From positions 1 to 64,000 of the forward strand of contig CAWBHS010000100.1 in the NCBI GenBank assembly GCA_963788655.1: a stretch of DNA of 64,000 bases. Direction: 5' to 3'. Below the pieces are notes generated by a model. It made no database searches. It was given only the letters and a program-made list of their open reading frames with translations, and was not told where the DNA came from. Shown one piece after another: positions 1 through 37,244 of this stretch. Source of the stretch: an uncultured Verrucomicrobiae bacterium. Lineage in GTDB: Bacteria; Verrucomicrobiota; Verrucomicrobiia; Limisphaerales; JAFGQR01. The position numbers were made by a program, and so were the translations under genes. Within the stretch, counting starts at the first letter, position 1. Every line of letters begins with the position of its first letter.

Positions 1-109
1 ACCACTTAGCGTAATCGCGGGTGGCGCTTCTTTTCGACCAAGGCCCCCTGCTTCAAACTGATCAAACGGAAACTGATTGGCCAATGCTCAGATGAAAAGG
101 AGAACTGTC

Positions 110-1144
110 ATGCCATGCTTTGCCGCCCTGGATGTCTCGCAGGAGACGACGGCCATCTGCGTTGTTGATGACGATGGCACCATTATTGCAGAGACGACGA
201 TTGCGACGTGTCCCGACGGGATCACAAACTTTCTGAAAGACAAAGCACCGAACCTATCACGTGTTGGTCTTGAGACAGGCCCTCTTGCTGTCTGGCTGTG
301 GAACGAGTTGGCGGCACGTCAACTGCCTGTCCTATGTATCGATGCCCGCCACGCCAATGCAGCCTTGAAGATGCGGCCTGTCAAAACGGATCGAAACGAC
401 GCGGCCGGTTTGGCTCAGATCATGCGCGTCGGTTGGTTCAAACAAGTGCGGATCAAGAGCCATGACTGCTATCAGGTCCGTTCGTTGCTTACAGCGCGTG
501 AAACGCTGGTGCGCATCCGGGTAAAGATCGAGAACGAGCTCCGTGGCCTTCTGCGGACATTTGGAGTTCTGTTTGGCAAGCGCGTGGGCGGATTCACGGG
601 GCGCGCCCATGAGATCATTTGTGGTGAATTGGAAGCGTCGCCAGAAATGCGGATTATTGCGGAAACCTTGATGAAGGCCAGAGCGTCCGTATGCGATCAA
701 ATCAAGGTTCTGGACACACGGCTTGCGGCGATCGCCAGAGCGAACCCAACCGCCCAGCTGTTTATGACTGCGCCCGGTGTGGGAATCATTACCGCGCTGT
801 CAGTTGTGTCGGCATTCGATGACGCCTCACGCTTCAAAAGGTCATCAAGTGTCGGCGCATATCTCGGGCTGACGCCAAGACGATACGAATCCGGTGAAAC
901 CAGCAGAAATGGACGCATCTCGAAGCAGGGCGACAAGATGGTGCGAAAGCATCTCTATGAGGCGGCAACAACCTTGCTGACGCGCAACTTGCGATCTTCG
1001 TCCTTAAAGATCTGGGGTATGAAGTTGGCAAAAGTGTCCGGCTTCAAAAAGGCGCGCATTGCGGTTGCCCGAAAACTTGCCGTGGTTCTTCACGCAATGT
1101 GGAAAACCAACACGCCATTCCGCTGGACCCAGTCGGCAGCATGA
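110..1144 (+). CDS. IS110 family transposase/recombinase (DEDD RuvC-like + Tnp20 domain)
   Basis: Motifs ALDVS, GLETG, KTDRNDA (DEDD), APGVG, YLGLTPRRYESG (catalytic Ser) and AVARKLA. An AGGAG RBS at 98-102 precedes the ATG at 110; the ORF track starts at 77. Confidence 0.97.
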   Translation: MPCFAALDVSQETTAICVVDDDGTIIAETTIATCPDGITNFLKDKAPNLSRVGLETGPLAVWLWNELAARQLPVLCIDARHANAALKMRPVKTDRNDAAGLAQIMRVGWFKQVRIKSHDCYQVRSLLTARETLVRIRVKIENELRGLLRTFGVLFGKRVGGFTGRAHEIICGELEASPEMRIIAETLMKARASVCDQIKVLDTRLAAIARANPTAQLFMTAPGVGIITALSVVSAFDDASRFKRSSSVGAYLGLTPRRYESGETSRNGRISKQGDKMVRKHLYEAATTLLTRNLRSSSLKIWGMKLAKVSGFKKARIAVARKLAVVLHAMWKTNTPFRWTQSAA

Positions 1145-1169
1145 TCAGGGATAAATTGCTCGACTAAGC

Positions 1170-1345
1170 CAACGGACGCGTCCCCGCCGGGACGTATGGC
1201 GCGGATCAGACCGTCCCTCTGAATGCACTGCACAATGAAGCAAGTGCGAGGACCACTTAGGTCGATCCGACCATCCGACGCCAACATGCGGCGATCCGTC
1301 GAGATCGACCGCGGAGAGAACCATGAACCCGGCGCACGCCAAGGC
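1170..1345 (+). ncRNA. Candidate bridge RNA / seekRNA of the IS110 element
   Basis: Hairpin 1178-1195. Stem 1202-1212/1260-1269 encloses an internal loop (1213-1223 and 1249-1259) closed by stem 1224-1229/1243-1248. A second stem-loop spans 1279-1334. Loop strands match target and donor sequences. Transcript ends are unknown. Confidence 0.75.
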
Positions 1346-1359
1346 AAAAATCAAACAAC

Positions 1360-1380
1360 TTGACCAATGCGATTAGAGAA
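1360..1380 (+). promoter_or_regulatory. Outward-facing -35 (TTGACC) at IS right end; half of a putative circle-junction promoter
   Basis: TTGACC at 1360-1365. Joining the right end to the left end places CAAACT 18 nt downstream. Confidence 0.5.
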
Positions 1381-1785
1381 CTTCAGTGGGGGCACTTTAC
1401 AACCACTTTAACTATGACCGCAGCTTCTCTAGCAGACCCATCTTCAAGACCAACCGAACCGCCGCCCTTGACGAGTGGCGCAGTCTTTTTCGTCAAAAGC
1501 GGCAGGGGCAATTTCCTAGCTGAGACTGGTTCGAATTCGCCTGACAGCACCTACCGGTGTATTCCGGGCAGAACCAATTCGAGGTTGCGGACGTGCTGGG
1601 AGAGGAATTTTTCCGTTGTGCATAATTTAAAATGTAAATCATGCACAACAGGAAAAGTGGCAGCCCGCAGGGTTGTTGCAGATTCCAGCGATAACAATGG
1701 GGTAGGTTGTCCAACTGACCGGATTGCCTTCATTGAACACAAAGCGGAAATCTCTGCTTTGTCCAACGCGAAAAACCGCTCCAAC

Positions 1786-2170
1786 CTCAGCCAATATATC
1801 GCCCCTGCGCACAAGCGCATGTCGCGAACTCTGGGCTATGCGCTGACCCTCGGCACCTTCGACGGCTGGGCGGATTTTTCCCGCCGGGGTAGCTGCGCGG
1901 CTGTCCGACGCTGAGCGCGCATCGCTGGCCCTCGCTGCCCTGAAATCCCTTGAGCCTGATCAGATCGAGATGGTGGCCATTGCCGCCACTGGCGCAGCTG
2001 GAAGGCCGCTCCCGACACTTCTGCGCGTCATGGACGAGGCCCCGCAATGGGCATCCTACGCCAGCCGATCCGAACGCAAGGCATATGCCCTTGCCGCTCA
2101 TGACGCCATGAGCTTCGAGGATCAGCTCGCATTCTTCCGACAGACCCGCGAAATGGAGATTGCAGCATGA
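1786..2170 (+). pseudogene. Frameshifted hypothetical protein (alphaproteobacterial prophage/ICE-like)
   Basis: The frame HKRMSRTLGYALTLGTFDGWADF continues after a shift near 1885 into ...EPDQIEMVAIAATGAAGRPLP...REMEIAA. Confidence 0.45.
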
Positions 2171-2442
2171 AAATGATGACACATCCAGCCGCCAACAGCT
2201 CTGTCCCTCCCTTCAGCAATACGTGGCCGTGCCCTTCTGGCGGCTCGACTCAGCATATTGCTGGATAAAGCGTAGGAGAAATCAGGGATCTACGGAGTCT
2301 CGCCCTATCCCGACGATTTGGTATCCATCCGTGTAATCCGGGCAATCCGCGGTTCCATCCCGTTTTCTCGGATTTCGCCGGATTTTGCCGCTCGAGATTG
2401 GAACGATTCGGGCTCTTTTCGGCGTCTGGTCGTTCGCTGATC

Positions 2443-4112
2443 CTAACCCGGCGTAGCCGGAACCAAGAGTTTGGGTAAAGTTGGTGCATGAATGCACCGA
2501 TCAAAGCGGGCAGTGATCTCCAATCCAAACTGCTGGACAGACGTTACGCCAAAGATATTGAGGGGACGCTCGGCTGCTACGACCGTCTCATTGTCACTGG
2601 TATGCTCGGTCGATGTGGGGCATCCCGACGCCATGACGGCCAGCAGCTTCGGCATCTGAATATCCGCTGCTTTGGTCTGGTGCGTCTTCGCCGAACCCTT
2701 GGGCGATCAGGTGCGCGATAACGCCATCCTGCTGGCCCGTCAGGCCGGTCTGGAAATCACATTATTCTGGAACGTAAGGGGCTGCGCAAGGAAGCGCGGG
2801 TCGCTGAGATTCTTGAACAGCGCGGACGGCATCCCGGCCTGGTCCACATCTTCTCCGCCATGAGATCGTGCCAATGTTTCAAGCCCTGGCACGACCGGAA
2901 GACCGGGCGCACGGGACTGCAAGCTCACCGGCGGACGGGTGCCTGCACTACTACTTCTATTTTATCGACGAGCAGTTGGGCCTGGGGTTACATGCGCGTG
3001 CCCACCTGGCTGCCCTTCCGGCTGCAAGTCTACTTCAACCAGCACGCCTGGCTGGCCAATCAATTGCGCACGCACGGCGGATCCCCCATGGGCTGGCCGA
3101 CAATACGTTTGTCTCCTGCGGGGATTGGGCGAAGGCCCAGGCGTTGGTTACGAGCTTTCGAGAGATCAAAGTGTTGGGCGGCCCGCCTGCACGCCCTGGC
3201 CGAGGAGTTTTGCCGGTGGTGCAAACAGTTTCGCGGCGGCTACCACTGGAGTCTCATGCAGGTGGAGTATGCGCTGGACGTGGTGTTCAAGCGCGCCGCC
3301 GCTGCCTGCGTCCGGTTTACCAGGAGATCAGCCGGCAGGCCATCTTCACGGTGAAGGCACCGGACACTCGCCCGGTTCCTGAACAAGCGGCTTCGTCCGG
3401 GGAGGCTGAACGGCGCAGGGGAGCGACTTTCATACGCGCGTCGAAGGCACGCGCATCAAACACCAGCTCAACCGGCAGGCGATCAAGATGTATGACAAGG
3501 CCGGACGCGTGCTGCGCCTGGAATGCGTGAGACAACGACGTGAGCTTTCTATCGACACCACCGCAAGGTGGAACATCGGGATGGCAGCAGCGACTATCGG
3601 GTGGCGGACCTAAAGAAATCGATCTTCAGCCTGGGCGATCTGGCCGGGTTGATGCGGGCCGGCTGTGCAAGGTATCTGGAGTTTATCGGAGAGTTGGAAG
3701 ACCGCAGCGGCGGGCCGACCAACTTGGATAAAATCAGCCGGCCAGTGACGGATCGACTGGGAGCGGAGTTGGCGCGGGTTCAACTTTTTCCTCGGGCACG
3801 ATCTGACGGTGCTGCTGGGGATCGTGCGCGGCGAGTATCAAATCAGCGGGATGAGCAACCGGCGGCTGCAAGCGGTGCTGCCAGGAAAGAGCAGCAGACA
3901 ATCGGGCGAATCCTCAAGCGGCTGCGGCTGCACGGATTGATCAAAAAACGGCAAGACCTACAAGTATTACCTGACGGAACTGGGACGGCGCGCGGTGCTG
4001 GTGGGACTCAAACTCAAGGAACACCTGATCGTCCCAGGGTTGGCCAACGCCAGCGCATAAACCCTCAAATATGTTGCGCCTCTTGCACAGGATTTTCCCG
4101 GTAAGGGACTAA
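2443..4112 (+). mobile_element. Degenerate putative transposable element encoding a ~500-aa protein with a C-terminal wHTH (family often labelled MarR-like)
   Basis: Left end CTAACCCGGCGTAGCCGGAACCAAG (CCGGC-GTA-GCCGG hairpin). Right end ...GGGACTAAC is followed by an 11-bp tandem duplication. Coding fragments are spread over all three + frames. Confidence 0.55.
2488..4060 (+). pseudogene. Multiply frameshifted transposase/replication-initiator-like protein
   Basis: Fragments GTLGCYDRLIVTG, CLHYYFYFIDEQLGL, MRVPTWLPFRLQVYFNQHAWLA, WSLMQVEYALDVVFK, IKMYDKAGRVLRLEC (3482-3526), LKKSIFSL, ILKRLRLHGLIKK. Confidence 0.7.
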
Positions 4113-5491: not shown

Positions 5492-5665
5492 TGTAGGGCG
5501 AGACTCTGTCGAGCCCTGACTTCCCCTCATCGCGGCCAAACATCCGAGACATTGACCGCGGCAAGTGGCAGGCGGTTCGAACGTCAAGGACCTCCCAGGT
5601 TTACGCGATATGTGTTGGGAATGCCCGGAGGGGAAATCAACGCTCGACGGAATCTCGCCCTAACC
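5492..5665. repeat. REPIN-like inverted doublet (GTAGGGCGAGACTC..TCGAG family)
   Basis: GTAGGGCGAGACTCTGTCGAG...CTCGACGGAATCTCGCCCTA. The same family occurs at ~2293-2309 and 30080-30250. Confidence 0.8.
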
Positions 5666-16277: not shown

Positions 16278-17680
16278 TAGGGCCAAGGGCCCGGCAATAT
16301 TTCAGCCCGGGGCAACGACCTGGGGATCGTTGCTTTGCGGCCGGCTGAATTCAACGGAGGGGTGAATGTCTTGACGGGTGTTGTCATGGGACGGGCCTTC
16401 AGCCCTTGGGTGGCTTGGAATCCGGTTTCCCAGGGCGTTGCCCTGGGCTGGGATGGGGCGCGCCGTTGGCGCTGGAGGCAGTGAGTTTGGTGACGAGGGC
16501 GTCAGGGAGGGATTCGGCGGTGGAACGGGATCGGGTGAATTGGGCTTCCAATTGGTCCACCAAGGCCATCTGTTGCTCCACTTTGGCCACAATCCGGTGT
16601 GGTTCGGCGAGGGGTGGGATGGGAATGAGGGGCAACGCCCCGACTTCATACCAGACTGGGGCAACGCCCCAGGCATGTTTGAAAGCCCGCTCCATCTTTC
16701 AATCCCAAACATAAGCCTCCTCGTATTCCACCCCGTATTTTTTCAGGAACCTCCGAAATTCATCCTGAAACGTTCGCGTCGTGTGGTGCTCTTCCTGACT
16801 GTCAATGTAGGTCTTTAACGCATCCAAATCCGATGGACCAACGGAGAAACATCCGTAGCCACGTTGCCACGAGAACGCCGCGAGGTTGGGCGATTGCGTC
16901 TTCAACCATTTCGATGATGCCGTTTTCAACGTCTCCACCAATTTCGCGATGGTGATGGTGCGCGACAGTCGAATGGCGAGGTGAACATGGTCCGCTACGC
17001 CGCCGACACGGAACGCCTCGCAACCCGCGTTCCGCGCGACGGTGGCAAGATACGCGTGGACTTTAGGGCGCGTGTCGGGATCGAGGAAGGGATGTCGCTC
17101 CTTCGTGCTGAAGATGACGTGGACGATGACGAGGCTCAATGATTGTGGCATGACGATGGTGGTTCAGGGCCAAAGGCCCGATTGATTCCAGCCTGGGGCA
17201 ACGCCCCAGGATTCCGACAAACACAATATCCCAAAGCGCCAACGGCGCGATCCATTCGTGCTTTGCCCTGGGGCGTTGCCCCAGGCTGGGATGGAGACGC
17301 GCCGTTGGCGCTGGTGGACGTGAGTTCGGCCACGAGGGCGGAGAGGAGGTTCGCGGCGGTGGCGCGGGCGGTGGCGAGCTGGATTTCCAACGCGTCCACC
17401 AAGGCCATCAGTTGCTCCACTTTGGCCACGATCCGGCGTTGTTCGGCCAATGGAAAGGGCCAACGGCCCGGCAATATGTCAGCCTGGGGCAACGCCCCAG
17501 GAATTGAGGATCCAACAACCACCGAGCCTGAAGGGGTGGACCACCGGCGGCGGAATTCCACACGTGGGATGGTTGATTGATCGTTGGCATAATGGACCGG
17601 GCTTTCAGCCCTTTTTGTGTTTTCGGCCTTTGCCCTGGGGCGTTGCCCCAGGCTGGGATGGAGACGCGCCGTTGGCGCTG
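16278..17680. repeat. REP/REPIN cluster (AGCCTGGGGCAACGCCCCAGG family)
   Basis: At least 7 copies in alternating orientation near 16303, 16430, 16652, 17189, 17267, 17481 and 17634, flanking the tnpA gene. Confidence 0.88.
16699..17151 (-). CDS. tnpA: IS200/IS605-family Y1 HUH transposase (REP-associated, RAYT-like)
   Basis: HVIFSTK, DHVH (HUH), FSWQRGYG.FSV, YIDSQ (catalytic Tyr). Confidence 0.93.
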   Translation of the reverse strand: MPQSLSLVIVHVIFSTKERHPFLDPDTRPKVHAYLATVARNAGCEAFRVGGVADHVHLAIRLSRTITIAKLVETLKTASSKWLKTQSPNLAAFSWQRGYGCFSVGPSDLDALKTYIDSQEEHHTTRTFQDEFRRFLKKYGVEYEEAYVWD

Positions 17681-17994
17681 GCGAATGTGAGTTCGGCGAC
17701 GAGGCCGGCGGCGAGCTGCGTTTCCAACGCGTCCACTAAGGCCATCAGTTGCTCCACTTTGGCCACGATCCGGCGTTGTTCGGCGAGGGGGGAAAGAACG
17801 CAATCGGCCTTTTTGGATTCGCCGCGTTTCACGGTTTTGCCGCGGACGATCACCCGGCCCTTGGTGAAGTGGCGTTCTTCCAGGACCTGGGTCATGACAT
17901 CCCATTTGGAGCCGCCCGGACCAACGATGGCTGGCGTGATGAATTTGGTCCGGATATCGGCTTCGGTAAGTAATTTTTTGTTTAAGGGTGGCAT
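17605..17994 (-). pseudogene. hsdR: hsdR N-terminus fused by deletion to hsdS C-terminus
   Basis: TEADIRTKFITPAI...FTKGRVIVRGKTVKRGESKKAD (EcoAI-type HsdR start) is joined at ~17790 to PLAEQRRIVAKVEQLM. Confidence 0.85.
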
Positions 17995-18306: not shown

Positions 18307-19755
18307 GTGGTACAACAACAGACCTTACGTCAGGGCGTTAGTTTTTCCGGTTTCGGCCTTCACAGTGGGAACCGAGTTAATATGGCGTTGCTGCCGGCGG
18401 CGACGAATAGGGGCGTCCGTTTCCGGCGTGTGGACCTGAACGGCCGGCCGGAAATTGAAGCGCACCTCGAGTACGTGACGGAAACGACGCGCTCCACGAC
18501 GCTGTCCAAAGGCAACGTCAAAGTGCAAACCGTCGAGCACGTGTTGGCCGCGTTGGCCGGGCTGGAAGTGGACAACGCGGTCATCGAACTCGATGCCAAC
18601 GAACCGCCGATTGCCGATGGCAGCGCCCGCGAATACACCCGGATGATTGAAGAGGCCGGCCTGGTGGCCCAGGCAGGCAAGCGGGAGCCTTACCGGGTCA
18701 GCGAGCCAATGGAACTGGTGAGCGGCGACAACCTGGTGACGGTTTTCCCGCACCACCGGCTGAAGATCACCTGCACCAGCGCGGACAAGGGCGGGCGGTT
18801 TGTCCAGTTTTACACGGTGGAGCTTTCCCCGGAAACCTGGAAGCGCGACCTGGCCCAGGCCCGGACGTTCTGTTTTTACGAGGAAATCGAACACTTAATC
18901 CGTAACGGTCTCATCAAGGGCGGCAGTTTGGAGAATGCGGTGGTGATCCGCGAAGACGCGGTGCTGACCACCGAACCGTTGCGGTATGCGGAGGAATTTG
19001 TCCGCCACAAGATTCTCGATATCGTGGGCGATCTGTCGTTGCTGGGTCGGCCCTTGGCGGCCCACATTATTTCCGTGAAACCGAGCCACGCGGCCAATTA
19101 CGAACTGACGAAACTCATCTACAACCAAATGCGCAAACCCATCGTTGCCACCCACACGTTTGCTCCCCCGCCGCAGCCTCCGGACGAAAAGCCGGCTCCC
19201 GCGGCGGCGGAGAAGCCCGCGCCCTCCGCTTCGTCCAGCACTGAGAAACCGGCGCCGCTCCCGAATCCGCCCGCGGCCGAAATGCCAGTTCCGTCCAAGG
19301 ACATCATTGAGGCGGTGCGCGATGGCGCCACCTTGGACGTGATGCAGATCATGAAGATTTTGCCTCATCGCTATCCGTTTCTGATGGTGGACAAAGTGAT
19401 CAAGATCCAGGGCAACAAAATCACCGGCGTCAAAAACCTGACCATCAACGAACCATTTTTCGAAGGCCATTTCCCCAATCACCCGATCATGCCGGGTGTG
19501 CTCCAATTGGAAGCCATGGCGCAGGTGGCGGGGATTCTCATGCTCAAACAGGCGGAAAACTACGGCAAGATCGCCTATTTCATGTCGGCCGAAAACGTGA
19601 AGTGGCGCCGGCCGGTGCGGCCGGGTGATGTGTTGCACATTGACGTCGAACTGGTCAAATCACGCGGCAAGATTGGCAAGGCCAAGGGCGTTTGTTTGGT
19701 GGACGGCGAACCGGTCAGCGAGGCGGAAGTGACGTTCGTGCTTCAGGCTGCTTGA
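18307..19755 (+). CDS. lpxC-fabZ: Bifunctional UDP-3-O-acyl-GlcNAc deacetylase / 3-hydroxyacyl-ACP dehydratase
   Basis: TVEHVLAA, ARTF, RHKILD (LpxC); LPHRYPFLMVD, GHFP..PIMPGVLQLEAMAQ (FabZ). Confidence 0.96.
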   Translation: MVQQQTLRQGVSFSGFGLHSGNRVNMALLPAATNRGVRFRRVDLNGRPEIEAHLEYVTETTRSTTLSKGNVKVQTVEHVLAALAGLEVDNAVIELDANEPPIADGSAREYTRMIEEAGLVAQAGKREPYRVSEPMELVSGDNLVTVFPHHRLKITCTSADKGGRFVQFYTVELSPETWKRDLAQARTFCFYEEIEHLIRNGLIKGGSLENAVVIREDAVLTTEPLRYAEEFVRHKILDIVGDLSLLGRPLAAHIISVKPSHAANYELTKLIYNQMRKPIVATHTFAPPPQPPDEKPAPAAAEKPAPSASSSTEKPAPLPNPPAAEMPVPSKDIIEAVRDGATLDVMQIMKILPHRYPFLMVDKVIKIQGNKITGVKNLTINEPFFEGHFPNHPIMPGVLQLEAMAQVAGILMLKQAENYGKIAYFMSAENVKWRRPVRPGDVLHIDVELVKSRGKIGKAKGVCLVDGEPVSEAEVTFVLQAA

Positions 19756-26871: not shown

Positions 26872-29805
26872 TTATCTCGCAACCCGATCACGAAACAGAC
26901 CTTCCATTCGTTGGCGAAAGCTCACCAGTTCCTTTTCCTGCGCCGCACTGAAATACCCCAACTGCTGCGCGTAGGTGTCCATCCACGTGGCCAGTCGTTC
27001 TCGATCATCGGCTGTCAGTGCCACGTCTTTGTGACCGCTGACGCTGGTGAGCAATTTCCAGAGCTTGCTGTTGGCCGCGGTACCGGTTCCTGGCAGAGAC
27101 CGGTCGCGTTCGAAGGCTTGTTTCTTCAAATCCTCGTTCGCAAAGGTCATTAGCGACTGCCAGGCTTTGGCGGCGGTTAGATCCAATTGGGCGGCGTCTG
27201 CGTCCTCACTGCCTGGGAAGTGGCAGTTGACGCACTTTTGATCGAGCACTGGTTGCACGAGTTCGCCAAAGCGCAACGGCCACGAACCACTGGGGCCGGG
27301 CGTCAGCTTGGAAGGCTCGCGCAACGCGGCCAGTGCCGGTGGACCGGTCGCCGGTGCGCGGTCGCGATGTTCGTGGCAACCCACACAGGAAAGCGTCTGG
27401 CCCGGCATGGTGTAAGTGAGCGAGCGCATCGTTTGCACCGCCAGACCGTCCGCGTCGAGCGCCTGGAAGAACACCGGCACCCCGCTGGGCACGCGGAAAT
27501 GAGCGGAGCCGTCCGCCTCGACCGGCACCGTACCCAGCACAAACTTACCCGGATCTTCCGCTGACACGCCCAGCACGGGACTGTTCATCTGCGGCTGCAC
27601 CTTCGGCGGTACGCCCACGATGCGGAGTCGTTTGATGCGACCGCGGGCCACGCCGTCAAGGCCTTCATAAACGTTCTGCACCAGGAAACGGCCTTCCTGC
27701 GTCCCCTGCCAATCGGCCATGATCGTTTGAACCGGTGGCCGCGGTCGCGGCGTTACCGGGATCGGGTTCATGCTGGAAATGTCCGGATCGCGATAAAGTA
27801 GTTCCAAATTGCCGAAAGCGTCATAGAGGTAAATACCCATGGCGTTCGGCGGATTTCGGTTGTCCTTCACCAACGAATGCGGCGGCAATTTGGCGTCCGC
27901 CCAGCCGACCAAGAAATAGTCTTCCGTCAACGGCCACGGATTGGCGTAGTAATGTTCCGGCGAGCCTTCGGTTTCAGGGAAACAGACTTCGGGCGTCAGG
28001 CGCGTGATGGGGGCGGCGCCTTCCAAACCGCGGTTGCGATCCAGCAAACACAGGGAACCACCTGTGATGGAATGGTGGGCGCTGGCGGTGAAAACCAGCT
28101 TGTCCGAACCGGGAATCGAGCGCGCTTCGAGCGCCACCTGGGGTTTGGTCGTGTAATTGCCATAGACAAGCTGCGGATTCGTGCCGTCCTGATTGGCCGA
28201 CCAAAGGCTGAAGAAATGGCCGTTGAACCGATCGATGTAATCCCAGCGCGTGTAGAGAATTCGCCCATCGCCGGCCACCGACGGCGCCCATTCGAAATTC
28301 TCGAACGCCGACAACGGCCGCAGGCGGGTGCCGTCGGCATTGATCCCGTGCAGGGTGAACACCGGCACCGGACGCCAATTGTCGCCGCCGCAACGAACGT
28401 AACTGTCAGGCAGGTTCGCTTGGCGCGTTGAATCAGCAAAGGCCATCGTGCTCTGCAGGGCTTGCCCTTTGCGCGTGGACAGGAACAGGAGGTCGCTGCT
28501 GGGCAAATAGCGCGGATCGAAGTCGTCGTATTTGCCATGCGTGATCTGCCGCAACCCGGAGCCGTTCACGTTCATTTCGAAGAGGTGATAAAAGGCGTCC
28601 TCGGGCACGTTGGTTTTATCCGCCTTGTTACGTTCGTTCTGGAGGTCCGGGTAAAACTTGCAATAGGCAAACAGCACTTTGGTGCCGTCGAACGAAAGAT
28701 CCGGTCCCGCGAAATTGCCCTCCGGAAAACGGTCGGTAAGGCAACGAACGCGCGCTTGGCCGGTCTTGAAGTTTTCCAGCACGTAGATGCCGCCGCCGCC
28801 GCGCGACCACCAGCCGTAGTGCTGGTCGGACATGTGGGGGAACATCGTGGGCGCCCGTTTAACGAAAAGAATGGAGTCGAAATTGAGCAGCGGATTCTTT
28901 AGCGCCAGTTGGCGTATGATCCAGTGGGTGCGGAGATAAGTGTCGCGTTGCTGGAAACGCTGATCGGAATCTGATGCGTTCGATGGGTCGGCCGAAGAAT
29001 TCGGTGCGACGGATACACTATTTTTCTCTGAACCGAGGATGATCGGATTCTTGTCCCGAAGCGATTCGATTTCGCGCAAGTTTGCTTGTTCCGTGGTCAC
29101 GTCCACGCCTAGACGTTGCAAACTTTCCGCCAGCTTCAGCCCGCGTTTTACCGTCAAGGCAATCGGGTAATCCGGTTCGTGTGCCGCGAGTGGCGGCGCG
29201 TGCCAAACCGACCATTGGCTGGTACTGCTTTGGGTGGCCGGTCGGTGGAGCGCGACATTGGCTGTTTGTCCCACGGCATAGATTTCGACTTCGTCCAAGT
29301 GGAAATAGTTTTGTCCCGGCAAGGCCAGGCGAACAAAGCGAGCTCGGGCGCCATTAAGTTTCACCATGAGCGGTTTCTGATCCGGATAGCCGTAAAACGC
29401 CGTGCCGTCGTGTGCATAAACTTGCTCGAAGCTTTGACCGTCGCTGGAAAGCAGCACTCGAAGGTGGCCATTGCGGGCGGCAAAACCACCGTCACAACGA
29501 TTCCAAAGCATGACCCGTTCGAGGGCCATGGCTTCGCCGAGATCCACCTGCCACCAGGGATTGGCTTCGAGCGCAGTGTGAAATCCCCATTGACCATTCT
29601 TCACGCCGTCCACCGCGCCGGCGGCGTCGGCTTCGCGGGTGACGGTGGAAGTGCCGGCTGTCGGCGCCAATCGTTTGACATCCTGCCGCAACCAGTCGGC
29701 TTCAATTTGGAGGTGCGTGGGAGGCGGGGCGTTATCCGTTGCTAAAAGCTCCGTTGCGGCCAAGGCGAGAAACGGCAGTGCGCAGATTAATAGCTTATGG
29801 TGCAT
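26872..29805 (-). CDS. Secreted F5/8 (discoidin) + beta-propeller + hydrazine-synthase-alpha-like domain protein with two CxxCH motifs
   Basis: PWWQVDLG; YTRWDY; LGTVPVEADGSAHFRVP..FQALD; CVGCH and CVNCH. Confidence 0.82.
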   Translation of the reverse strand: MHHKLLICALPFLALAATELLATDNAPPPTHLQIEADWLRQDVKRLAPTAGTSTVTREADAAGAVDGVKNGQWGFHTALEANPWWQVDLGEAMALERVMLWNRCDGGFAARNGHLRVLLSSDGQSFEQVYAHDGTAFYGYPDQKPLMVKLNGARARFVRLALPGQNYFHLDEVEIYAVGQTANVALHRPATQSSTSQWSVWHAPPLAAHEPDYPIALTVKRGLKLAESLQRLGVDVTTEQANLREIESLRDKNPIILGSEKNSVSVAPNSSADPSNASDSDQRFQQRDTYLRTHWIIRQLALKNPLLNFDSILFVKRAPTMFPHMSDQHYGWWSRGGGGIYVLENFKTGQARVRCLTDRFPEGNFAGPDLSFDGTKVLFAYCKFYPDLQNERNKADKTNVPEDAFYHLFEMNVNGSGLRQITHGKYDDFDPRYLPSSDLLFLSTRKGQALQSTMAFADSTRQANLPDSYVRCGGDNWRPVPVFTLHGINADGTRLRPLSAFENFEWAPSVAGDGRILYTRWDYIDRFNGHFFSLWSANQDGTNPQLVYGNYTTKPQVALEARSIPGSDKLVFTASAHHSITGGSLCLLDRNRGLEGAAPITRLTPEVCFPETEGSPEHYYANPWPLTEDYFLVGWADAKLPPHSLVKDNRNPPNAMGIYLYDAFGNLELLYRDPDISSMNPIPVTPRPRPPVQTIMADWQGTQEGRFLVQNVYEGLDGVARGRIKRLRIVGVPPKVQPQMNSPVLGVSAEDPGKFVLGTVPVEADGSAHFRVPSGVPVFFQALDADGLAVQTMRSLTYTMPGQTLSCVGCHEHRDRAPATGPPALAALREPSKLTPGPSGSWPLRFGELVQPVLDQKCVNCHFPGSEDADAAQLDLTAAKAWQSLMTFANEDLKKQAFERDRSLPGTGTAANSKLWKLLTSVSGHKDVALTADDRERLATWMDTYAQQLGYFSAAQEKELVSFRQRMEGLFRDRVAR

Positions 29806-30079: not shown

Positions 30080-30250
30080 GCAGGGCGAGACTCCGTCGAG
30101 TCCTGATTTCCCCGGAGTGCGTCCTCCAACCAAACGACAGCCAAAGGGAAAACCAGTTATGTCCAAACACTGCCGGTTTCCCCTGTTGTCGCTGCTGGAT
30201 CGGTAAGAACGATGCGGAGAAGTCAGGGCTCGAAGGAGTCTCGCCCTACC
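30080..30250. repeat. REPIN-like inverted doublet (same family as 5492-5665)
   Basis: GCAGGGCGAGACTCCGTCGAGTCCTGA...TCAGGGCTCGAAGGAGTCTCGCCCTAC. Confidence 0.8.
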
Positions 30251-34542: not shown

Positions 34543-36915
34543 CTACGGACCGGCTGGCGTTCTTAAGACAGGCGCTAGTATCACCGCGTCAATGCCCGCA
34601 CAGTAGCCGCTGGATTTGGCATTCTGGTCCACGGCTTGGAGACGCAGGATGTTCTCTCCTGGCCGGACTTCAATCGTTCCAAGCTCCACCGTCTTGGTGT
34701 CCACCTCCGGCGAGTAGGTGTCGAGGGAATCACTCAAGAGCGTGTCATTGAATTGCAGGCGAACCATGGCGTAGTCCCAAGAGGTCACCAACCGAAGTCG
34801 CAGGGCGTATCTACCAGGCTTCACAGAATCCACAAGAAGGAGATCGATAAAGTCTCCCGGCTGGCCCATTCGAATGAACAACAAGCGTTCGGCTGAAAGC
34901 GGCGGAAAGGAGGTCACTCCCACGCGTTGCTTCGTCACGGTCACACCGTCACTTTTGGCTTTCGTCGTAAACTCTTCGGCCTCCAGGGCGCCTTCGATCC
35001 GAAAAGGATTGGGCCAGTTGCCGATCCATCCGCCAGGGTTACGACTATCGCCGTGGATGGAATAAACATCGAAACTCTGTGGATTGAACTTACCTGGTTG
35101 GGCATAACGATACGGTTGTTCCCAGGGATCAACTGGCAACTCCCTCACGTACGGCCAACGGCGTTCGGTCGCCTGCAAACGGTTGGGACAGCGCACCAGT
35201 TCTTCCAGGTTGCGCGGAGACTCGCCCAATTCCTTTTGGAATCGCTTAATGGCGGCATCCAATTTTCCAACGGTTTGCTGAGCCTGTTGCACCATGACCG
35301 CAAAACGCGCTTTCTCATCCGCCAGGTATTGCTGCATCTGGCCATAGAGGTCGTTCCACGGAACCCGACGCAGCGAAATGCCATCCAAACGGCAGTTCAG
35401 CCCTGGTTCCTTGAAATTGTCCCCCCTGGCCAACGGATTTGAGCCAACGCATTCAAATCGAAAAACGTAGTCTCCCGCTGCCAGCTTGTGGATGCCGACC
35501 TTGTTCTCGAACCACGTTCCATACAGGAAATTCTCCGGACGATTCTCCTGCCAAGCCAGGTAGGGATCGTAGAAATCCATGGCCGGATCAAGCAGGATTT
35601 CTTCCCCCGAATTCTTGAGCGTCAGTTTCCAGATACCGCCACTGTGATACAGGCATTGAAAAACGGAAATCGAATACGGCCATTCCTCCGCGACGTGGCA
35701 GGGGACTTCGAACCAACCGCCGACGCGGGAATTGTCCACATAAAGACCGCGCTTCAAATTGCAGACGCGGTTGCTGTGCCGCCGGACTGTTGTGCCGTCG
35801 GAAGAATTGATCTCGGACGCCATGTCCGCAGTTTCGAGAAAGATTTCAGGATTGATCCGCTCTTCAACCGGGGGAAACCGATCCAACCGTTGGGCGATGT
35901 CTTTCTGATACCAGAACGCGACCGACGAACAGAAATCTGGTCGATATTTGAAGTCGTAGGTGGTTCGTTCGCCGGTTTCCGGATTCGTCACTTGCGCGTA
36001 ACTGCGTCGTTCGATTTCCACTTTCAGCGATTTGCTGAATGTGACCGGTGCCTGGACGTGCCAACGGTAGGCAGTAAAGCGGCAGTCTTCGCCGTTGGGC
36101 TCTTTGATGGTCACGCCGGTGTTCGGATTGGCAAACAGCCGAAGATTCCAGGCATCGTTAAAAAAATCCTCGCAGCCCGTTCCCACAACGGAAGGCTCGG
36201 TTTCGCCATCAATGTAGAACCGGTCATCCGATTCGCCGAACCAACTGCCATAACTGCACTGGATGGAGAACACCGTACCCACGTAATGTCCTTCCCCCTG
36301 ACCTTGAAAAATGACATACGGCGAAAACGGTTTGGCCGGGAATTCCTGACGATAGCGGGCATGAAAATACAGCATGTCGTCCGGCAAACGCGGCAGTTCC
36401 ATCCAGTCGAACTGCCAATACACGGTCAATCGGTGGTCGCCTTCGTTGGTCATCTCGATCCGTGCTTCCCGGCGGAACGGCATCCGCCAATAGCAGTTGA
36501 GCGCCCGGCCGTACGAGGTGACTTGGATCGGCAGCGTGTTCACGTTGGCGCGCGTTCCGTTGCCGGCGGCAAAGAAATCGCCGATCGGCGTTTCCACCGA
36601 CGGCACTTTCGCGCCGTCCCAGTAAATACGGAGCACCAAGGTGCGCGGCCATCGCCGGTCCTGCCCGGCAATGGTGAACCATATATGCCGGATTTCCCCG
36701 GGGCCTTTGAGCCTGGTCAACTCGACCGTCTCGCCGGCAGCAATATGGTAGGCGTCCGCGTTCGATTCGGGATCGAACAGGCCGCTGGAAGCCCGCCGTG
36801 CTTTGCCTTCGATATGCCGGGTGATTTCGGCGAGGGGATCATCGGCCAGAAGTGAGCGTAGCCCCAGTGTCAAAGCAATTGCCAAAAGCAGGAATTCCAC
36901 TCGCGGAGAATTCAT
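34543..36915 (-). CDS. DUF2961/GH172-like glycoside hydrolase with an inserted GspG-like domain and a C-terminal beta-sandwich
   Basis: GPGEIRHIWFT, P.GDFF, NCYWRMPF, WFGESDD, GTGCEDFFN; DPWEQPYRYAQPG...FDVYS.G.D. Confidence 0.82.
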   Translation of the reverse strand: MNSPRVEFLLLAIALTLGLRSLLADDPLAEITRHIEGKARRASSGLFDPESNADAYHIAAGETVELTRLKGPGEIRHIWFTIAGQDRRWPRTLVLRIYWDGAKVPSVETPIGDFFAAGNGTRANVNTLPIQVTSYGRALNCYWRMPFRREARIEMTNEGDHRLTVYWQFDWMELPRLPDDMLYFHARYRQEFPAKPFSPYVIFQGQGEGHYVGTVFSIQCSYGSWFGESDDRFYIDGETEPSVVGTGCEDFFNDAWNLRLFANPNTGVTIKEPNGEDCRFTAYRWHVQAPVTFSKSLKVEIERRSYAQVTNPETGERTTYDFKYRPDFCSSVAFWYQKDIAQRLDRFPPVEERINPEIFLETADMASEINSSDGTTVRRHSNRVCNLKRGLYVDNSRVGGWFEVPCHVAEEWPYSISVFQCLYHSGGIWKLTLKNSGEEILLDPAMDFYDPYLAWQENRPENFLYGTWFENKVGIHKLAAGDYVFRFECVGSNPLARGDNFKEPGLNCRLDGISLRRVPWNDLYGQMQQYLADEKARFAVMVQQAQQTVGKLDAAIKRFQKELGESPRNLEELVRCPNRLQATERRWPYVRELPVDPWEQPYRYAQPGKFNPQSFDVYSIHGDSRNPGGWIGNWPNPFRIEGALEAEEFTTKAKSDGVTVTKQRVGVTSFPPLSAERLLFIRMGQPGDFIDLLLVDSVKPGRYALRLRLVTSWDYAMVRLQFNDTLLSDSLDTYSPEVDTKTVELGTIEVRPGENILRLQAVDQNAKSSGYCAGIDAVILAPVLRTPAGP

Positions 36916-37244
36916 GTATCGAGTTGAAATCGATCTCCGGATTGCGCTCGATGCCCAACCTGTTTTTGAGGGATCGTTGAGGTTCATTGGGGCAGAGTCG
37001 CGACCATCAGCATTTGCGGCAAGTTGGAATTTCATCTCGAAGTTCCCCTTAAGCCGTAATGCTCCAGTCAACAAGGGGAGCGCGCCCTCGCCGGTTGGCC
37101 GCGCGACTGAGCAGTCACTGAACAGTGAATCCCTTGGGACCTTCGAAAGTGGTTGGCGAGGCGCCAACCACAGCGCCCGAGGCGGGGGCGCTCCCCTATC
37201 GCAATTGCGCGGATACGGTTCACGCAGCCACTCCCAAATAACCG

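Follow-up and report, generated by a model that had tools for sequence, protein, structure and literature searches.

An IS1111-type insertion sequence with a probable seekRNA-kind guide for the left inverted repeat of IS3-family elements

At the beginning of the window, by which the whole analysed stretch of 64,000 nucleotides is meant, lies an IS1111-type element, and it is likely, with a probability of about 0.85, that its DEDD transposase works with a guide of the seekRNA kind that reads IS3-family insertion sequences at their left terminal inverted repeat. The element has defined boundaries, its target is identified, the structure of its non-coding tail is conserved among relatives, and the two strands of an internal loop in this tail change together with the flanking DNA. 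RNA guidance is already established for the family to which the transposase belongs, and the element is a further case of an RNA kind that has been described, the IS1111-type seekRNA; it does not reveal a new mechanism.

The transposase gene (110..1144; plus strand, like all other features given here) encodes 344 amino acids and is preceded by a ribosome-binding site at 95-102. A first-pass annotation, made from the DNA letters, had taken the gene for an IS110-family DEDD recombinase, and this is borne out by the domains PF01548 and PF02371 and by a match to NCBIfam NF033542, named 'IS110 family RNA-guided transposase', at 245.6 bits with a cut-off of 140. The C-terminal domain aligns to the transposases of IS621 (E 7e-9) and ISCro4, and within this aligned domain the translation reads GLTPRRYESG, which corresponds to the C-terminal IS1111 motif GL-P----S(t)G. 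Elements of the IS1111 type are described as carrying this motif and subterminal repeats, with their long non-coding region placed behind the gene (PMC11187229). In the element of the window, a DEDD (RuvC-like) N-terminal domain is combined with the PF02371 C-terminal domain as in the IS1111 group, and 239 non-coding nucleotides downstream of the gene (1145-1383) stand against 102 upstream (8-109), which is the IS1111 layout. The subterminal inverted repeats of the group are usually 11-13 bp long, with a 7-bp left and a 3-bp right extension (PMC11187229), and a range of 7-17 bp is given in PMC11208160. The repeat of this element is a perfect one of 7 bp, with TAATCGC on the left (12..18) pairing with GCGATTA on the right (1369..1375), the latter being kept in relatives and the end sequence around the former being conserved in all of them; the terminal extensions total 12 nt (e.g. 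7+5) and are thus not the canonical 7+3.

As judged from its junctions, the insertion sequence is the segment 8..1383, 1376 bp in length. As ACTT stands at both junctions, any placement of the ends between 4-1379 and 8-1383 is equally valid, an uncertainty of up to 4 nt. Relatives were obtained by megablast against plasmids and by one genome scan (36 loci), and the boundaries were set by 13 related left junctions, 33 right junctions, and three uninterrupted targets (L040-L042). The DNA homology of the relatives starts at window position 1 and extends in L001 and L004-L015 to about 1394. Left of the conserved end of the element the 13 loci diverge, yet all of them keep the seven nucleotides of window 1-7, with one mismatch in a single locus (L004), and on the right side conservation runs 16-18 nt past 1383 and is then lost. 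In the uninterrupted targets, which are IS3-family copies on plasmids, the 7-nt left motif directly adjoins the right-hand motif, and between the point where both meet and the tip of the left inverted repeat there are 16 nt. Since the two motifs are contiguous where there is no element, window 1-7 and 1384-1401 together represent the target sequence. The left target flank ACCACTT (1..7) is the inner part of the IS3-family left inverted repeat, and the right target flank (1384..1401) comprises its outer part and presumed tip, the same motif being found in relatives; the tip at 1393-1401 is atypical for an IS3-type left inverted repeat. The first-pass annotation had correctly counted 1383-1389 to the right flank, whereas the position it gave for the left flank, 44-50, lies inside the element, as the homology of the relatives from window position 1 onwards demonstrates. 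No second copy of the element was found within the window.

Some of the junctions deserve a remark of their own. Two loci (L011 and L013) have three extra nucleotides between the body of the IS3 repeat and the 7-nt left motif, which may be an IS3 repeat variant or a register shift. In L007, a tandem duplication at a short internal repeat (1585-1679) affects 72 nt of the right end, and the copy in L001 is in turn split by an IS3-family element (1855-3050). Only 7 nt precede the element in the window. An IS3-family repeat is to be expected at this place, and the start would be compatible with an assembly broken at a repeated element.

The actual target, as read from these junctions, is the left terminal inverted repeat of IS3-family insertion sequences. 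In relatives, the start of an IS3-family orfA is found further left of the junctions on the opposite strand. Homology to IS3 OrfA was detected by tblastn in 8 of the 11 left flanks with a length of at least 60 nt and was absent from those of L001, L006 and L026, and the Pfam domain HTH_Tnp_1 was present in all four left flanks tested. Every element with a visible IS3 orfA points away from it. The right inverted repeat of IS3 elements, inspected by eye in the uninterrupted copies, matches the guide poorly, and a search for that repeat in the left flanks of the relatives, which are too short to reach it, found none. Of the left flank the window shows just 7 nt, the rest of the IS3 element lying left of the window start. 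A full-text literature search returned no description of an IS1111-type element in IS3 inverted repeats, which is weak evidence of absence.

The part of the non-coding tail that would be relevant for target recognition is an internal loop of 11+11 nt, which is enclosed by a basal stem (1202-1212/1260-1269, with A1208 bulged) and capped by an apical stem (1224-1229/1243-1248), with a small hairpin (1178-1195) in front; all of these are present in the sequence as they had been annotated before. The 5' loop strand (T segment, CCCTCTGAA, 1215..1223) is complementary to the top strand at 1382-1390 in 8 of 9 positions. The 3' loop strand (B segment, GGACCACTT, 1250..1258) has the sense of the left flank and is thereby complementary to the bottom strand; the stretch 1252-1260 is identical to window 1-9, and a 9-nt sense match of that kind arises in 1 of 5000 shuffles. 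The T and B matches overlap on TT. A segment complementary to the top strand that stands 5' of the one complementary to the bottom strand, with an overlap at the insertion point, is the arrangement described for IS1111-type seekRNAs (PMC11187229).

Across the relatives, comparison of loops and junctions indicates that both loop strands co-vary with their own flanks. For the T segment, 31 loci were compared with their right flanks in the best register between -3 and +5 (L002 and L003, which are without the loop, being excluded), and 10 of them match in 9 of 9 positions and 17 in 8 of 9, while two loci each have 7/9 and 6/9. In a fixed register, after L024 had been dropped as identical to L023, the 22 unique pairs of guide and flank agree at 160 of 198 positions as compared to 135.0 +/- 5.3 in shuffled pairs, and with one representative for each of the nine T types at 68 of 81 as compared to 50.9 +/- 3.9, values that were reached by none of 20000 shuffles in either case. 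Different IS3 variants have different right-hand motifs. Against every cognate site seen, the T segment of the window type has the same U-T mismatch (1218 vs 1387), and the right flanks of two close relatives, L001 and L026, match poorly (6/9).

In 12 of the 13 elements compared, the window counted, an identical stretch of 9-13 nt is found in both the B segment and the left junction, and there are four B types, each matching its own left flank in 9 of 9 positions, including relatives with 57-63% amino-acid identity. In the permutation test the B segments agree at 52 of 63 positions (44.8 +/- 2.9 when shuffled; reached by 84 of 20000 shuffles), a count that includes one spurious pair from L023, whose supposed left end is a chance motif match inside a 3' fragment. 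The left flank is nearly invariant within the IS3-targeting clade, and the co-variation of the B segment thus rests on four types from few lineages. Further B-segment variants occur in L016, L025, L033, L036 and L039, which are truncated copies that lack left junctions. In L045 the B match is perfect and the T match is poor. With nine T and four B types, the guide segments change with the target, which amounts to a natural reprogramming.

These pairings are not the ones that had been proposed from the window alone. According to the first-pass annotation, the layout would be that of IS621, in which the left flank, at 44-50, is represented by the 5' strand in sense orientation, the right flank, at 1383-1389, by the 3' strand in antisense, and a CT core separates the two. 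Both 6/7 matches that had been put forward (CCCTCTG to 44-50, and CCACTTA to the reverse complement of 1383-1389) do exist and are arithmetically right, and it also holds that the loop carries both halves of the target. The assignment of strands to flanks, however, has to be reversed. The sequence at 44-50 is not only internal to the element but varies among relatives that have an identical loop strand, the uninterrupted targets put the left flank at window 1-7, and the 3'-strand match is a by-product of the near-palindromic nature of the target. The overlap on TT takes the place of the CT core. The suggested check for co-variation of loop and flanks in relatives turned out positive for the loop strands as such, but they follow the flanks in the opposite assignment, and the segments stand in the reverse of the IS621 order. 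The IS621-like layout is thus the least probable of all readings considered and can practically be dismissed.

Only slightly more credit can be given to the idea that the loop is a donor-binding one that reads the two ends of the element itself, as joined in the circle, rather than a target. Until the uninterrupted targets turned up, both motifs resembled conserved termini of the element, but they are contiguous without any element in three IS3 copies, and the right-hand motif differs by IS3 variant, which makes this idea very improbable. A version of it in which window 1-9 is the left end of the element and the loop reads both ends was ruled out by the same uninterrupted copies.

The target-reading loop is part of a larger structure, and the non-coding tail very probably encodes a guide RNA of the IS1111-type seekRNA kind, as its alignment with related tails suggests. 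An RNAalifold consensus of 27 related non-coding regions recovers the stems that were annotated before and adds three helices, namely 1193-1199/1271-1277, a second hairpin (1288-1296/1303-1312) and a long-range helix (1185-1191/1328-1334). In this alignment 96.2% of the cells pair, as compared to 26-44% in slid controls, and 11 of 35 pairs show compensatory change, which was reached by none of 500 shuffles. When six more distant plasmid copies were added, giving 33 sequences, compensatory change was seen in 17 of 33 pairs, again with 0 of 500 shuffles reaching it, and the previously annotated stems of 1202-1269 can therefore be regarded as real. Five such pairs belong to the basal and three to the apical stem, the second hairpin (1288..1312) has them in 4 of 7 pairs, and the long-range helix has double-sided changes in 3 of 7, which come from L047/L048. 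No co-variation of its own is seen in the small hairpin at 1178-1195, which competes with the long-range helix. The single-sequence fold of 1145-1400 is not significant (z -1.44) and folds differently, the internal loop not being reproduced, so that the structural support comes from the alignment. No Rfam family covers the region: with positions 1-3000 as query and E values of up to 10 allowed, all matches were chance ones to microRNAs; matches of this sort (E 0.04, far below the gathering score) fall on an AT-rich near-perfect inverted repeat at 1608-1659.

The same region could in principle act as DNA, either by providing binding sites for the transposase or as a single-stranded hairpin, and the matches to the flanks would then be a mimicry of the target. 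In favour of this, the region belongs to the right end, a place where one expects sites for protein binding, and the linear copy yielded no promoter. What speaks for RNA is that five helices are kept by compensatory change over 33 sequences and contain many G-U pairs (for example in 27 of 33 sequences at the base of the apical stem), which would be A-C on the other strand and thus fit a plus-strand RNA. Also, the two strands of one internal loop both track the flanks, and the homologous regions of ISEc11, ISPa11 and ISKpn4 give rise to essential RNAs that co-purify with the transposase, as reported in PMC11187229. A function as DNA is therefore improbable, if somewhat less so than the two alternatives above. 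The claim that the non-coding DNA 3' of the gene is built like a guide RNA for a DEDD recombinase stands, supported by the conserved fold and the co-variation with the flanks.

For the guide RNA, two forms can be predicted from the consensus structure. The short one would be a seekRNA hairpin domain of 85 nt (1193..1277) with the helices 1193-1199/1271-1277, 1203-1212/1260-1268 and 1224-1228/1244-1248, and the long one, of 150 nt (1185..1334), would be closed by the long-range helix. Both sizes are inside the published ranges of 82-96 nt for short and 148-172 nt for long seekRNAs (Table 1 of PMC13604230). The invariant multi-loop that is closed by 1185-1191/1328-1334 may read the own ends of the element. 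An unpaired stretch in it (1315-1321) has a 7-nt sense match to 1375-1381 at the right end (reached by 85 of 5000 shuffles), and an unpaired part also has a 6/7 antisense match to the left end, which 1669 of 5000 shuffles reach. The element ends and the multi-loop stretches are invariant across the relatives.

By analogy with ISEc11, ISPa11 and ISKpn4 (PMC11187229) we infer that the RNA is made, binds the transposase and directs the recombination. Immediately to the right of the crossover, the 5' loop strand (1215-1223) would pair with the target's top strand, and immediately to the left the bottom strand would be paired with the 3' loop strand (1250-1258); TT, as the putative site of exchange, would be covered by both. 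The site entered would be the left terminal inverted repeat of an IS3-family element, 16-18 bp from its tip and in a single orientation. After insertion, half-sites would be present at the two junctions, and the same loop could therefore also guide the excision to a circle. In IS1111-type elements the donor must be flanked by the target, which likewise implies a role in excision (PMC11187229). The circle junction is predicted to create a promoter for the transposase and the RNA: a putative outward -35 hexamer TTGACC is present at 1360..1365, and the arrangement of TTGACC, 17 nt and TAGCGT arises only when the right end joins the left end, while no promoter-like site was found in the linear copy.

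More distant relatives (L045-L049, 57-63% amino-acid identity) appear to reside in other targets, and they have kept the fold and altered the loop strands to match these. In L045 and L046 (left junction at about 807), the element follows the stop codon of an annotated IS256-family transposase gene at a distance of 43 and 36 nt, respectively, and three others (L047-L049, left junction at about 803) lie in a shared rhizobial repeat. There is about an even chance that the element of the window belongs to a clade of IS1111-type elements that live off the ends of other mobile elements and have repeatedly been retargeted via some 9+9 loop nucleotides. If this is true, nature would have provided, in the nine T and four B types and in a mismatch that is always tolerated, a data set from which pairing rules could be derived.

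As to the surroundings of the element, its closest copies (99% amino-acid identity in L004) belong to the roseobacter group, and the gene content of window positions 5000-50000 looks different from that of the genomes with these copies, which suggests a horizontal transfer or a chimeric contig. The difference is exemplified by the genes for an LpxC-FabA-like fusion (18307-19752), a protein with an HZS_alpha domain (26875-29805) and a prepilin-type DUF2961 protein (34546-37167). An IS200-like Y1 transposase gene is found at 16702-17151, and the region around it (16279-17804) contains repeated GC-rich palindromic units and direct repeats of 61-150 nt. A further repeat of about 33-40 nt occurs in five copies in both orientations (2275-2307, 5493-5532, 5630-5662, 30082-30113 and 30210-30249).

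The element provides a well-resolved natural example of an apparently RNA-guided DEDD recombinase: its ends are exactly placed, its target is identified, and co-variation supports its structure. It is at the same time a case of one mobile element disabling another. Its close relatives appear to have been redirected among variants of a single target class, which is formed by the ends of other insertion sequences, and such relatives can be useful for deriving the mismatch tolerance and the design rules of IS1111-type guides, which are less studied than those of IS621.

Among the known systems, ISEc11, ISPa11 and ISKpn4/ISPst6 (Siddiquee et al. 2024, PMC11187229) are, as described there, most similar in kind: they share with the element a DEDD transposase of about 340 amino acids with GL-P----SG, the long downstream non-coding region, the subterminal inverted repeats, the order of the guide segments with their overlap at the insertion point, the lack of a target duplication, the single orientation, and, with respect to the predictions made here, the sizes of the short and long RNAs. 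They differ in that the target here is an IS3-family left inverted repeat, the subterminal repeat has 7 bp and the extensions have 12 nt, and the element is known from its sequence alone. The bridge RNA of IS621 (Durrant et al. 2024, PMC11208160; PDB 8wt6) belongs to a homologous recombinase with a circular intermediate, and according to that report it also has an internal loop with one strand for each of the two DNA strands, the paired segments flanking a dinucleotide. Unlike in IS621, the RNA here would be encoded 3' and not 5' of the gene, the guide segments stand in the reverse order, and the search for a second internal loop, one that binds the donor, gave no clear candidate. The insertion into the end of another mobile element has precedents. 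IS4321/IS5075 in the inverted repeats of the Tn21 family and IS1383 in those of IS1384 (PMC11187229, PMC11208160), as well as ISEc21 in IS3-family transposase genes (PMC11187229), are all site- and orientation-specific and use other mobile elements as hosts, and it is the host elements or the sites within them, as far as these sources describe them, that differ from the left IS3 repeat which the element studied here has entered.
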